Assembly: GCA_002407925.1 (NCBI GenBank)
Contig: DHPN01000030.1
Span: 3,209-67,208, forward strand
Direction of reading: 5' to 3'
Length of the DNA: 64,000 nt
Source of the DNA: Atopobiaceae bacterium UBA5363
Lineage (GTDB): Bacteria; Actinomycetota; Coriobacteriia; Coriobacteriales; Atopobiaceae
The notes under the pieces were generated by a model. It made no database searches. It saw nothing but the letters and a program-made list of their open reading frames with translations, and was not told the DNA's origin. Both the position numbers and the translations under genes were made by a program. This document shows positions 38,807-43,386 of this stretch, piece after piece. The stretch's first letter is position 1. Every line of letters starts with the position of its first letter.

Positions 38807-40471
38807 CTAGACCTCCATGACCACCGGTATGACCATTGGGCGGGTATGCGTCTTAGACCAAAGGAAGTTTGAGAGCCCACCGCGCACGCTACGGCGCAGC
38901 TGCTCCATGTTGGCACCTTCTGATTTCAAGTTTCTGTCAACCTGTGTCCTGACGCTATCCTGCGCCTCACTCAGCAGCTTATCATCTTGGGCATAGGAGA
39001 CGCCACGAGCAGACATCTCCACAGACGCTGCGCGGCGGTTGCGCTTTGAGATAGCGACCACGCAAGTGACAATGCCATCTTCGCCAAGCTTTTGCCTGTC
39101 ACGCAACACCACTGGGTCGGCATCAGTGACATTAAGTCCATCAACGTAGACGACGCCTGACTCGACAGGCGTGCCCCAACTGACTTTTCCGTCGATCATC
39201 TGCAGGGTATCACCATTGTTCGCGATGAAGATATGGTCCTTCGGTATGCCCATTTGCTCCGCAAGCTTCGCATGGGCGCGCAGATGAACGGCTTCGCCGT
39301 GGATGGGCATGAAGAAGTGCGGCTTGCACATTGCAATCATAAGCTTGAGCTCTTCTTGCCTGCCGTGGCCAGAGACATGGACCATGGCATTGTTTTTGTC
39401 ATAAATTGCGCAGCCTATCTTGGAAAGGGCGTTGATGACGCCTTGCACGCTCTTCTCATTGCCGGGTACCGGTGTGGCAGAAATGATCACCGTGTCGTCA
39501 GGGGTGATCTGCAACGACTTGTGCTCGCCGTTAGCCATGCGCGCCAAGGCGCTCATAGGCTCTCCCTGGCTTCCGGTGCAAAGCACGACAATCTTGTCGT
39601 CCGGTATCTCTTCCACCTCATAGGCATCAATGATGTCTTTGTCATCGATGTGCAGGTAACCAAGCTCACGGGCAACCCGCGTGTTGGTTACCATTGAGCG
39701 GCCTGTGACGACAACCTTGCGGCCCACCGCCGTGGCGGCGTCGCAAACTTGTTGGAGGCGGTGGATGTGGCTCGAAAAGCAAGCCACGAACACGCGGCCA
39801 GGAGCATTTTTGATCACATGCCGCAAGACGGGTCCTACTGCAGCCTCGCTTGGCGTGAACCCTGGCAGATTCGCGTTGGTGGAATCTGACATCAACAGGT
39901 CAATCCCCATCGTCGAAAAGCGGCTAATCGCCTGGTAATTAGGCGTAATACCGTCTATGGGCGTTTGGTCTAGCTTGAAGTCGCAGGTATGCAGCACAGA
40001 GCCTGCTGGGGTCCTGAGATAGATGCCGAGCGCACCGGGTATGGAGTGGGTGACTGCAAAAAAGTCAATCGAAAAAGACCCAAGGTTCAAATGCGTGCCG
40101 TTTTGCACCTCGCGAAATCGGGGCGAGTTTATCTTATGCTCAGACAGCTTCCCCTCAATGATGCCCAACGTGAGCTTGCTTGCATAGATGGGCACCTTGC
40201 GCCTGAGGTCTGCCAAAAGATAGGGAAGCGCACCTGTATGGTCCTCGTGACCATGCGTGACGAGGATGCCTCGCAGCTTGTCCTCGTGCTCTAGCACGTA
40301 GGTGTAATCTGGCAAGACAAGATCAATTCCTGGCTGGTCGTCATCTGGGAACATAAGTCCTGCGTCAATGAGCACCATGTCGTTTCCGTACTCGAAAACG
40401 GTCATATTCTTTCCAATGCCGTCAAGGCCACCTAAAGGAATGACCTTGAGCGGGATTTGTTTCTTTGCCAT
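38807..40471 (-). CDS. rnj: Ribonuclease J
   Basis: PLGGLDGIGKNM, THGHEDHTG, TGSQGEP, HVSGHG, PIHGE. Confidence 0.97.
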   Translation of the reverse strand: MAKKQIPLKVIPLGGLDGIGKNMTVFEYGNDMVLIDAGLMFPDDDQPGIDLVLPDYTYVLEHEDKLRGILVTHGHEDHTGALPYLLADLRRKVPIYASKLTLGIIEGKLSEHKINSPRFREVQNGTHLNLGSFSIDFFAVTHSIPGALGIYLRTPAGSVLHTCDFKLDQTPIDGITPNYQAISRFSTMGIDLLMSDSTNANLPGFTPSEAAVGPVLRHVIKNAPGRVFVACFSSHIHRLQQVCDAATAVGRKVVVTGRSMVTNTRVARELGYLHIDDKDIIDAYEVEEIPDDKIVVLCTGSQGEPMSALARMANGEHKSLQITPDDTVIISATPVPGNEKSVQGVINALSKIGCAIYDKNNAMVHVSGHGRQEELKLMIAMCKPHFFMPIHGEAVHLRAHAKLAEQMGIPKDHIFIANNGDTLQMIDGKVSWGTPVESGVVYVDGLNVTDADPVVLRDRQKLGEDGIVTCVVAISKRNRRAASVEMSARGVSYAQDDKLLSEAQDSVRTQVDRNLKSEGANMEQLRRSVRGGLSNFLWSKTHTRPMVIPVVMEV

Positions 40472-40731
40472 AAGCGTTTAATTTCCTTTCGTAATACATC
40501 GTCTACATTATTTCCACGGCCTTGGCGACCGTCACATTTTTCTCTTCCATTCCATTGTAGGCATCGCCACGGTTCTGCGCATGAGCCGTCCATAAGCTTA
40601 AAATTGCCGTTTGCCGAGCAATTTCTTATCCACGCATAGCCATATGCGAATCGGGTATTCAATAATTACACAAAGTCTTCGAGTGCTTTTTCAGAGATGG
40701 GGGCGATTCCGATGGGCATATCACAGCTAGA

Positions 40732-41077
40732 GGCTGCTGAGGAAGGTGAGAAGTCTGCTTCCCTTCTCAATGCGATGGCTTTCGTCGTGATCTCCGCTTC
40801 TTTGAGACTATGCTAAGAGCAGTCTAGTTAGGGGAATACTGTATCCCACAGCGGAAAGTTATCGATGTTAAAGTCAAGTCGACCTTCTCAGCAGCCCTTA
40901 TTTGTACAGGCAGCCGAGGCGACGATCAGAAAGGGAAAGCTTCACTAAGGATCAGAGCTTTTATTCTTGCCTAAAAGAAGCAGCATCAAAAGAGTCAGAT
41001 GTGCAATAAGTAGGCTGATTCCAAGGGGAAAGTAGAAACGAAGACGCTTCGTCCAAAGCGGCGAGGCGTCTTTTTTT
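40732..41077 (+). ncRNA. Candidate structured non-coding RNA (6S-like rod 40732-40896 plus 3' domain and terminator)
   Basis: End pairing 40732-40747 with 40882-40896, and inner helix 40773-40783 with 40854-40864. G-U pairs work only on +. A + oriented terminator is present although no + CDS lies here. Confidence 0.55.
41041..41077 (+). terminator. Rho-independent terminator on + strand
   Basis: AAGACGCTTCGTC-CAAAGC-GGCGAGGCGTCTT then TTTTT. Two G-U pairs become A-C mismatches on the minus strand. Confidence 0.8.
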
Positions 41078-41121
41078 GTCTAGCTCATCTCTCACGCCAT
41101 CTGCCCGAAAAAGCTGCGGAG

Positions 41122-43386
41122 CTATCCCTCATGATGACGACGTGGCGTGTGCTGGCCATTGCCTCCAAGAGCGCCTTGATCTCCTGGATGGCGATGAAAG
41201 CCATGATTTGCATGACGCTCGCGAGGCTCGTGGTCACGGTGATCATGACGCTCGCCGTGAGTGTCATGATGGTGGTTCGTATCTGCTGCAGGAGCATCAG
41301 GCTTGTCAAGGCGATCAAGGCTGATCTTGCCCTTTTCGTCTACATCAAGCACCTTTACCTTGACTTCATCACCTATCGAGAGCACATCCTCAACTTTGTT
41401 GACATGGCCCTTTGCAACGCGGGACACATGCAGCAAGCCATCTTTGCCCGGCAGGAGCTCAACAAAGGCACCAAAGGGCTGGATGCCGACAACGCGGCCT
41501 GTATACTCTTCGCCCACCTCAGGGACCTTCACGATTTGCTTGATGCGCTCAGCGGCCTCTTTCCCAGCCGCAGCGGTGCCAGAGATAAAGACGGATCCGT
41601 CCTCTTGGATGTCGATCGCCGCACCCGTGTCCTCTTGTATGCCGCGAATGACCTTGCCGCCTGAGCCGATGACGTCACGAATCTTATCAGTCGCGATATG
41701 AAGGCTGATGATCTGAGGAGCTGATGCCTTTGTATGCTCACGCGGCTTAGGGACAGCATCGAGCATCGCATCAAGAATGAACATGCGACCCTCGTGAGCC
41801 TGTTGGAGCGCCTGACGGAAAATTTCGGGTGTCAGGCCCGTGGCCTTGTTATCCATCTGCATGGCGGTGATTCCCTTGGTGGTGCCTGTCACCTTGAAGT
41901 CCATGTCGCCAAGGAAGTCCTCAAGACCTTGGATATCGGTCAAAACAACCGTTTTGCCCTCTTCTTGGATCAATCCCATGGCCACGCCGGACACCGGTCT
42001 TTTGATGGGTACACCAGCATCCATAAGAGCAAGCGTTGATCCGCAGGTAGAAGCCATAGAGCTTGAGCCGTTTGACTCCATCACCTCAGAGACCACCCGT
42101 ATCGTATAGGGGAACTCCTCCTCTGAAGGAATAACTGGCAGCAGAGCACGCTCCGCCAATGCCCCGTGTCCAATCTCGCGCCGCTTGGGCGATCCTATGC
42201 GGCCGGTCTCGCCGGTGCAATAAGGCGGGAAGTTGTAATGGTGTATGTAGCGCTTACCATCAACCGGCTCGATGGTATCAAGGCGCTGCCACTCATTGAG
42301 CATGCCAAGGGTGCACACTGAGAGAACCTGCGTCTGCCCACGCTGGAACAGGCCGGAGCCATGGACGAGCGGCAGGTAGTTGCCCTTGATGTAGAGCGGC
42401 CGAACCTCGTTTGCCTTACGCCCATCGACGCGCTCGCCCGTCTCGACGACCATGCGTCTCATCGCGTGCTTCTCAAGGCTCTTGAGCTCGACTGGGATGG
42501 CGCGATTCCACTCCTGCTGCTCCTCCTCGCTAAACTCAGCTTGGATCGACTCCTTGAGCGCCTCAATCTTATCGATGCGAGAGAGCTTGTCGGTGTCTTT
42601 AAGAGCTGTGCTCATTTCATCATAATGGGCAAACACACGCTCGTGAACCTCAGGGACAGGCTCGTCAAGCACATATTCGCGGTGCGGGAACTCGCCGTTT
42701 GTCGCACGCACCTTGTCGAAGAACTTCTTCTCCTCCTCGCAGAAGGCAGCAATGGCCTCTTGGCCAAAAGACATTGCGGCAAGCATGTCTTCTTCTGGAA
42801 TCTCCTTGGCCCCTGCCTCAAGCATAGAGATGTATGACGCTGAACCAGCGAGCTCAAGGTCAAGATCAGAGGTCTTGCGCTCCTCATAGGTGGGGTTTAC
42901 TAAAAACTCGTCTGTATCTGTGTTGCGGCCAATGCGCACGCACGCCAGCGGCCCTTCAAAAGGCACTCCGCCAACCGTAAGCGCCGCTGATGCACCCATC
43001 ACTGAGATTGTGTCAACTGAATTGACCTGGTCGGCAACGAGTGGCATTGCAACGACTTGCACCTCGTTGCGAAAGCCCTCAGGAAATGACGGGCGCAACG
43101 GACGGTCGATCATGCGCGCCGTCAAGGTCGCCTTTTCGGAAGGGCGTGCCTCCCGCTTCAGGTAGCCCCCGGGTATGCGGCCAACCGCATACATCTTTTC
43201 AATGAAATCAACTGTCAGTGGGAAGAAGTCGTAATCCTTGCGCTCTTTGGAGACAACCACCGTAACGTTAACGGTTGAGTCGCCGCACTTAACGAGGCAC
43301 TCCCCTGTCGCCTGCTTGGCAAGCTCCCCTGTTTCGAGGGAATAATGTTTGCCATAGAGATCGAATTCGTGTGTAACTTTCGCCAT
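41122..43386 (-). CDS. pnp: Polyribonucleotide nucleotidyltransferase
   Basis: FFPLTVD, RRE-GHG, SNGSSSMAS, GDMDFKV, KH and S1 domains; His-rich tail. Confidence 0.98.
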   Translation of the reverse strand: MAKVTHEFDLYGKHYSLETGELAKQATGECLVKCGDSTVNVTVVVSKERKDYDFFPLTVDFIEKMYAVGRIPGGYLKREARPSEKATLTARMIDRPLRPSFPEGFRNEVQVVAMPLVADQVNSVDTISVMGASAALTVGGVPFEGPLACVRIGRNTDTDEFLVNPTYEERKTSDLDLELAGSASYISMLEAGAKEIPEEDMLAAMSFGQEAIAAFCEEEKKFFDKVRATNGEFPHREYVLDEPVPEVHERVFAHYDEMSTALKDTDKLSRIDKIEALKESIQAEFSEEEQQEWNRAIPVELKSLEKHAMRRMVVETGERVDGRKANEVRPLYIKGNYLPLVHGSGLFQRGQTQVLSVCTLGMLNEWQRLDTIEPVDGKRYIHHYNFPPYCTGETGRIGSPKRREIGHGALAERALLPVIPSEEEFPYTIRVVSEVMESNGSSSMASTCGSTLALMDAGVPIKRPVSGVAMGLIQEEGKTVVLTDIQGLEDFLGDMDFKVTGTTKGITAMQMDNKATGLTPEIFRQALQQAHEGRMFILDAMLDAVPKPREHTKASAPQIISLHIATDKIRDVIGSGGKVIRGIQEDTGAAIDIQEDGSVFISGTAAAGKEAAERIKQIVKVPEVGEEYTGRVVGIQPFGAFVELLPGKDGLLHVSRVAKGHVNKVEDVLSIGDEVKVKVLDVDEKGKISLDRLDKPDAPAADTNHHHDTHGERHDHRDHEPRERHANHGFHRHPGDQGALGGNGQHTPRRHHEG

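Follow-up and report, generated by a model that had tools for sequence, protein, structure and literature searches.

The locus considered here raises the question of what occupies the 650-nt gap (40472-41121) between two minus-strand RNase genes, rnj and pnp, in Atopobiaceae bacterium UBA5363. The window, i.e. the whole stretch of 64,000 nt that was analysed, corresponds to positions 3209-67208 of contig C34 of the source assembly (G000; 83% complete, 1.37 Mb). An earlier note on this DNA described the gap as devoid of any credible coding sequence, which is confirmed by the ORF listing and by the Pfam domains of both flanking genes (Table 1). The note placed in the gap an unannotated structured RNA with its own terminator on the plus strand, a proposal that is now supported by covariation and by RNA libraries. 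The element is probably an independent plus-strand gene whose product is a stable, structured non-coding RNA about 400 nt long that may act in trans; the gene would have originated in the ancestor of Olegusella, in the stretch from the pnp terminator to the rnj promoter. It is a previously undescribed sRNA family restricted to the genus Olegusella.

RNase J is present in 40 of the 41 related genomes, and the pairing of pnp and rnj is kept family-wide, the gap between them measuring just 200-300 nt in other genera. Nearly all Atopobiaceae members examined have the sequence ATTGTA at a distance of 80-115 nt upstream of rnj; its complement TACAAT is probably the -10 box of the rnj promoter, which would give rnj a leader of about 75-80 nt. 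As this putative box lies between the element and rnj, the element is placed upstream of the rnj promoter and outside the rnj leader. Three of the six species (G001, G004 and G005) have, between pnp and the element, an ORF of 160 codons without a Pfam domain (orf160), and there the terminator of the element faces orf160 rather than pnp; this ORF is absent in G000. Two further observations concern the neighbourhood. The PNPase C-terminus (encoded at 41122-41300) is a long low-complexity tail rich in His, Arg and Asp, whose last residues PRRHHEG/S are kept in distant family members and could form an interaction motif. In G036, a member of another genus, the pnp-rnj gap contains a near-perfect palindrome of about 75 nt, located about 215-290 nt upstream of rnj and unrelated to the element in sequence.

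Table 1. Features of the rnj-pnp locus, in window positions unless another locus is named.
Feature	Position	Strand	Details
rnj (RNase J)	38807-40471	-	Pfam RNase_J_b_CASP, RNase_J_C and metallo-beta-lactamase domains; divergent from the element
Probable rnj promoter -10 box, TACAAT	40554-40559	-	ATTGTA on the plus strand; predicted from family-wide conservation
Candidate promoter TAGCCA-18-AATAAT	40637-40666	+	Consensus scan and six-species alignment; weak
Most sequence-conserved block	40680-40722	+	Alignments A3 and A4
Left boundary of RNA contigs	40682-40702	+	Starts at 40682, 40686, 40701 and 40702 in four studies
5' hairpin, 5 bp	40698-40702 / 40707-40711	+	Helix 1; 96.7% paired
11-bp segment of the closing helix	40729-40739 / 40889-40899	+	
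4-bp segment of the closing helix	40744-40747 / 40883-40886	+	
Side hairpin, 7 bp	40748-40754 / 40762-40768	+	Helix 4
Inner helices	40776-40787 / 40863-40881	+	Enclose the apical hairpins; helices 5-9 span 40776-40881
Two apical hairpins, weaker	40810-40823 and 40839-40851	+	
Variable 3' domain	40900-41039	+	Alignment A5
Intrinsic terminator	41040-41080	+	14-bp stem at 41040-41073, then T7
pnp (PNPase)	41122-43386	-	Pfam RNase_PH, PNPase, KH and S1 domains; convergent with the element
orf160	L176:794-1276		In G005 (Olegusella massiliensis)

To gather homologues of the element, the sequence upstream of rnj was taken from the relatives. An alignable element of about 400-460 nt was found upstream of and divergent from rnj in all six Olegusella species genomes, which comprise, besides G000, O. 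massiliensis KHD7, Atopobium sp. oral taxon 810 F0209, two rumen MAGs and one Olegusella MAG. BLAST of the gap against 40 relatives returned one weak match only, the method being too insensitive. A covariance model of the 5' block and the folded domain (R1) detected a single copy in each of the six genomes (178-248 bits). With a threshold of E ≤ 0.01 it matched none of 145 Atopobiaceae genomes outside the genus (37 genera), and 150 genomes sampled across Coriobacteriia yielded only two chance-level matches. The R1 searches outside Olegusella thus covered about 295 Coriobacteriia genomes with no credible match, and the Coriobacteriia-wide scope first suggested for the RNA contracts to one genus. 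Pattern scans of genome and metagenome contigs recovered the same six species and none further. A 22-nt pattern allowing 2 mismatches gave mostly chance matches in coding DNA when run on 272 family genomes, and a hairpin-like pattern match in contig C10 of G001 proved unrelated to the element.

The core of the element (40725-40900, 176 nt) folds on the plus strand at -65.1 kcal/mol (z = -3.4), a value equalled by none of 200 shuffles, and at -57.3 on the minus strand. When the rnj-pnp regions of the relatives were aligned for covariation, as the earlier note had proposed, the structure proved conserved. The six-sequence alignment A4, covering the 5' block and the folded domain, yields a consensus of 51 pairs in nine helices, in which 91.1% of cells are paired, as compared with 37-50% in controls that shift the 3' partners by 1-3 columns. 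Both sides have changed in 18 of the 51 pairs (1-6 in the shifted controls), and none of 500 shuffles matches the observed pairing and compensation values, figures that are drawn from a small phylogenetic depth of six sequences and three lineages within one genus.

The closing helix of the original description, with 15 bp between 40729-40747 and 40883-40899, is found both in the fold and in the six-species consensus, where 94-96% of its cells are paired and 4 of its 15 pairs show compensatory changes. The small hairpin GAGAAG/CUUCUC on the 5' side (40748-40768) likewise stands, with compensatory replacements of G-C by A-U and of A-U by U-A, and its loop and 3' arm contain the invariant sequence GCUUCCC. 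The inner helix that had been drawn between 40773-40783 and 40854-40864 can form in the G000 sequence, but it is absent from both the minimum free energy fold and the consensus, which pairs 40776-40787 with 40863-40881 instead; both sides have changed in 8 of the 15 pairs of helices 5-7. The overall shape differs from the simple rod with a central bubble first envisaged, as the consensus is branched, with a three-way junction and an apex of two hairpins. Upstream of this domain, within the best conserved block, the 5' hairpin bears a Shine-Dalgarno-like GGAGGUG (GGGGGCG in G000).

The second domain described downstream of the closing helix is not conserved: its helices are specific to G000, the five relatives carrying a different hairpin. 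This common hairpin was lost from G000 through a 22-nt deletion that took its 3' arm (A5). The motif GAUUCC-R-A-N-GGG occurs twice in G000, near the 5' end (40705-40716) and before the terminator (41017-41028), and the second copy is also found in G001 and G005.

The terminator scan recovered the plus-strand terminator and its T-run. Stems followed by T-runs terminate the plus strand in all six species, with three different stem sequences; in G004 the stem has been wholly replaced while the plus-strand T-run is kept. The terminator of the element probably also ends the convergent pnp transcript. At 41070, the T-run has one extra T in one RNA contig (X16), either a length polymorphism or a homopolymer assembly slip. 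The reading of the strand from G-U pairs and the T-run gains support from the alignment, in which G-U pairs outnumber A-C mismatches by 39 to 8 on the plus strand. The consensus energies are -38.5 (plus) versus -31.5 (minus) for the core and -23.2 versus -16.7 for the 3' half, and the whole 411-nt RNA folds at -132.6 versus -111.6. When the core is folded one sequence at a time, the preferred strand varies from species to species, the minus strand being slightly better in G002 and G003. Taken as a whole, the RNA is very probably encoded on the plus strand. The candidate plus-strand promoter overlaps a genus-conserved GGTAT; it lacks a good -35 box, and its conserved -10 box of the GGTAT type lacks the usual final T.

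The presence of a transcript, which the earlier note had predicted, is borne out by metatranscriptomes from food fermentation, pit mud and fermentation, although these are blind to the strand. The sequence was found in six RNA runs, and the contigs of four of them, each from a different study, were examined and cover the element. Their left boundary (Table 1) is taken to lie close to where the RNA begins, with the qualification that assembled contigs reveal neither strand nor exact transcript ends. One contig (X18) spans only 40682 to about 41131, i.e. essentially the element alone, and one X20 contig spans only 40702-41035. The X16 contig has a depth of 52.6, and contigs on the rnj side reach about 3. 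Parts of the gap close to rnj (40405-40486) are without contig cover, which is not to be read as silence.

The same contigs bear on the alternative that survives best, namely a minus-strand transcript ending near 40682, which would be a long 3' UTR of pnp (of orf160 elsewhere) or an RNA derived from it, the fold then either stabilising the 3' end or marking where the RNA-decay operon is processed. The X15 and X16 contigs run on continuously from the element into pnp, and the X18 contig stops just within the 3' end of pnp, not at the T-run; the good minus-strand folds of G002 and G003, and the frequent lack of T-runs after the terminator hairpins that follow pnp in other genera, point in the same direction. 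Continuity with pnp is, however, uninformative, since two convergent transcripts with a common terminator, where they overlap, are joined when reads are assembled without strand information. Remnants of adapters occur at two contig ends (at 40686 in X16 and at about 41131 in X18). They would agree with a plus-strand RNA that meets a pnp mRNA from the minus strand, provided that both libraries had been dUTP-stranded, and they are given no weight here. T-runs follow the stems on the plus strand only in all six species, including G004 with its replaced stem, the excess of G-U pairs lies on the plus strand, and no minus-strand hairpin or T-run was found that would explain an end at 40682. A transcript of pnp or orf160 is accordingly an improbable source of the RNA.

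As an independent plus-strand gene, the element would be transcribed from a start at about 40670-40686, from a promoter back to back with that of rnj, to the intrinsic terminator facing the end of pnp. The RNA would consist of three parts, a 5' hairpin with GGAGGUG, a branched domain of about 170 nt with the GCUUCCC hairpin, and a fast-evolving 3' domain. It may have arisen or been inserted in the Olegusella ancestor between the pnp terminator and the rnj promoter, and would have stayed beside rnj since. We infer a trans-acting regulatory RNA, in which most likely an exposed C/U-rich loop would base-pair with ribosome-binding sites rich in purines, or a protein would be bound by the folded body. 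The GGAGGUG hairpin and the GCUUCCC loop and arm are the most conserved parts in sequence, which suggests either pairing with ribosome-binding sites or a protein-binding surface. RNAduplex comparisons of the RNA with the rnj leader of each species gave results no better than shuffles, and blastn-short of the RNA against its own genome returned nothing longer than 15 nt, which is chance level. The one sign of a regulatory link to rnj or pnp is the conserved adjacency to rnj, which suggests such a link. It is unlikely, though conceivable, that the RNA serves the RNA-decay or transcription machinery of this genus as a structured decoy or scaffold, binding RNase J (the product of its constant neighbour), PNPase or RNA polymerase and thereby adjusting overall RNA turnover; if true, this would constitute a new class of protein-titrating RNA in Coriobacteriia.

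The structural description in the earlier note proved largely correct. Its suggestion of an RNA of the 6S or Ms1 type that binds RNA polymerase found no support. In the Rfam comparison, no family reached its gathering score in the whole window, nor was any family matched at E ≤ 10 in the gap region (40450-41150) beyond noise (SNORA46 and RAGATH-19, both far below cut-off). A 6S-like locus that matches the 6S core lies elsewhere in G000 (G000:C18:68844-68958; L174:245-359), scoring 29 bits against the Rfam cut-off of 46.4 bits, and 37 of the 41 relatives have one such sub-threshold locus per genome. These single matches indicate that the Rfam model under-detects 6S RNA in this order, a deficiency which is relevant to annotation. 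The element resembles 6S RNA (SsrS, RF00013) in having its own gene, in its apparent abundance, and in the long helix that joins its 5' and 3' parts around an internally looped structure; 6S RNA, however, measures about 185 nt and forms a rod opened by a single large bubble at its centre, whereas the element is branched, about 400 nt long and confined to one genus.

Two 6S RNAs occur in some bacteria, and a second, divergent 6S-like or Ms1-like RNA could be envisaged here on account of the 170-nt domain with internal loops, whose ends are joined by the long closing helix, and of the apparent abundance in some metatranscriptomes. Such an identity is nonetheless very unlikely, as each genome already has a 6S-like locus elsewhere, the consensus lacks the single large bubble, and a restriction to one genus would be odd for a core transcription regulator. 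Ms1, an actinobacterial RNA that binds the RNA polymerase core, shares with the element a length of at least about 300 nt, a high degree of structure and an own terminator, but no sequence or model similarity was detected between them. The Ms1 neighbourhood consists of oxidoreductase and HAD-IB hydrolase (or phosphoserine phosphatase) genes (PMC9130861), unlike the RNase J and PNPase (or orf160) genes that flank the element, and Coriobacteriia are not mentioned in that account of Ms1 (PMC9130861).

Other known RNAs were also considered. In G000, G001 and G005, RNase P RNA, tmRNA and SRP RNA each gave an above-threshold match at a different locus from the element. A cis-regulatory leader or riboswitch is rejected, because no plus-strand gene follows the terminator, the next gene being the convergent pnp or orf160, and no riboswitch family was matched. 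A Y RNA acting with Rsr and PNPase (RYPER) would likewise be structured, its ends brought together by a long stem, and the element adjoins pnp; however, TROVE/Rsr (PF05731) was not found in the four Olegusella genomes examined (G000, G001, G002 and G005), and Rfam gave no YrlA match. RNAIII and RsaE of S. aureus and the actinobacterial 6C RNA, which we take to have C-rich or UCCC loops resembling those of the element, are similar to it as stand-alone genes with an intrinsic terminator, multiple hairpins and a C/U-rich loop motif (GCUUCCC here), and RNAIII also in the possible small ORF. Unlike these RNAs, the element has no target pairing found for it, and the Rfam scan showed no homology.

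That small ORF starts with an ATG at 40712, has a GGAGG-like box 8 nt upstream, and would encode a peptide of about 32-34 aa from an mRNA or a dual-function RNA. The box (GGAGG, or GGGGG in G000), the 8-nt spacer and the ATG are present in four of the six species, and in all six at least 24 codons can be read without a stop or an indel. On the other hand, ACG replaces the ATG in G002 and G003, and the C-termini and lengths vary. The synonymous fraction of this frame (0.11) is the lowest of the three, its variable columns are distributed 15/17/11 by codon position with no third-position bias, and the same bases also build helices with compensatory changes. A peptide-encoding role is thus very unlikely, though conceivable for a dual-function RNA, and no frame of the element shows signs of past coding in the six-species alignment, from which the element is read as non-coding. 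Least credible of all is a decayed gene or a non-functional insert folding by chance, as the occurrence in a single genus and the fast evolution of the 3' half with its large indels are countered by nine helices maintained by compensatory changes across three lineages, a terminator maintained or replaced in every species, transcription seen in metatranscriptome contigs, and the lack of past-coding signs in any frame.

The independent plus-strand gene is therefore a candidate well supported by covariation, terminator and expression, and it is fairly large and structurally complex for an sRNA. Its general importance is limited by the distribution in one genus and by the presumptive nature of its function. 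To our knowledge, almost nothing has been established about the regulatory RNAs of Coriobacteriia. Olegusella massiliensis KHD7, one of the host species, is cultured, which makes the candidate directly testable, and its constant position beside rnj provides a concrete hypothesis on the control of RNA decay.
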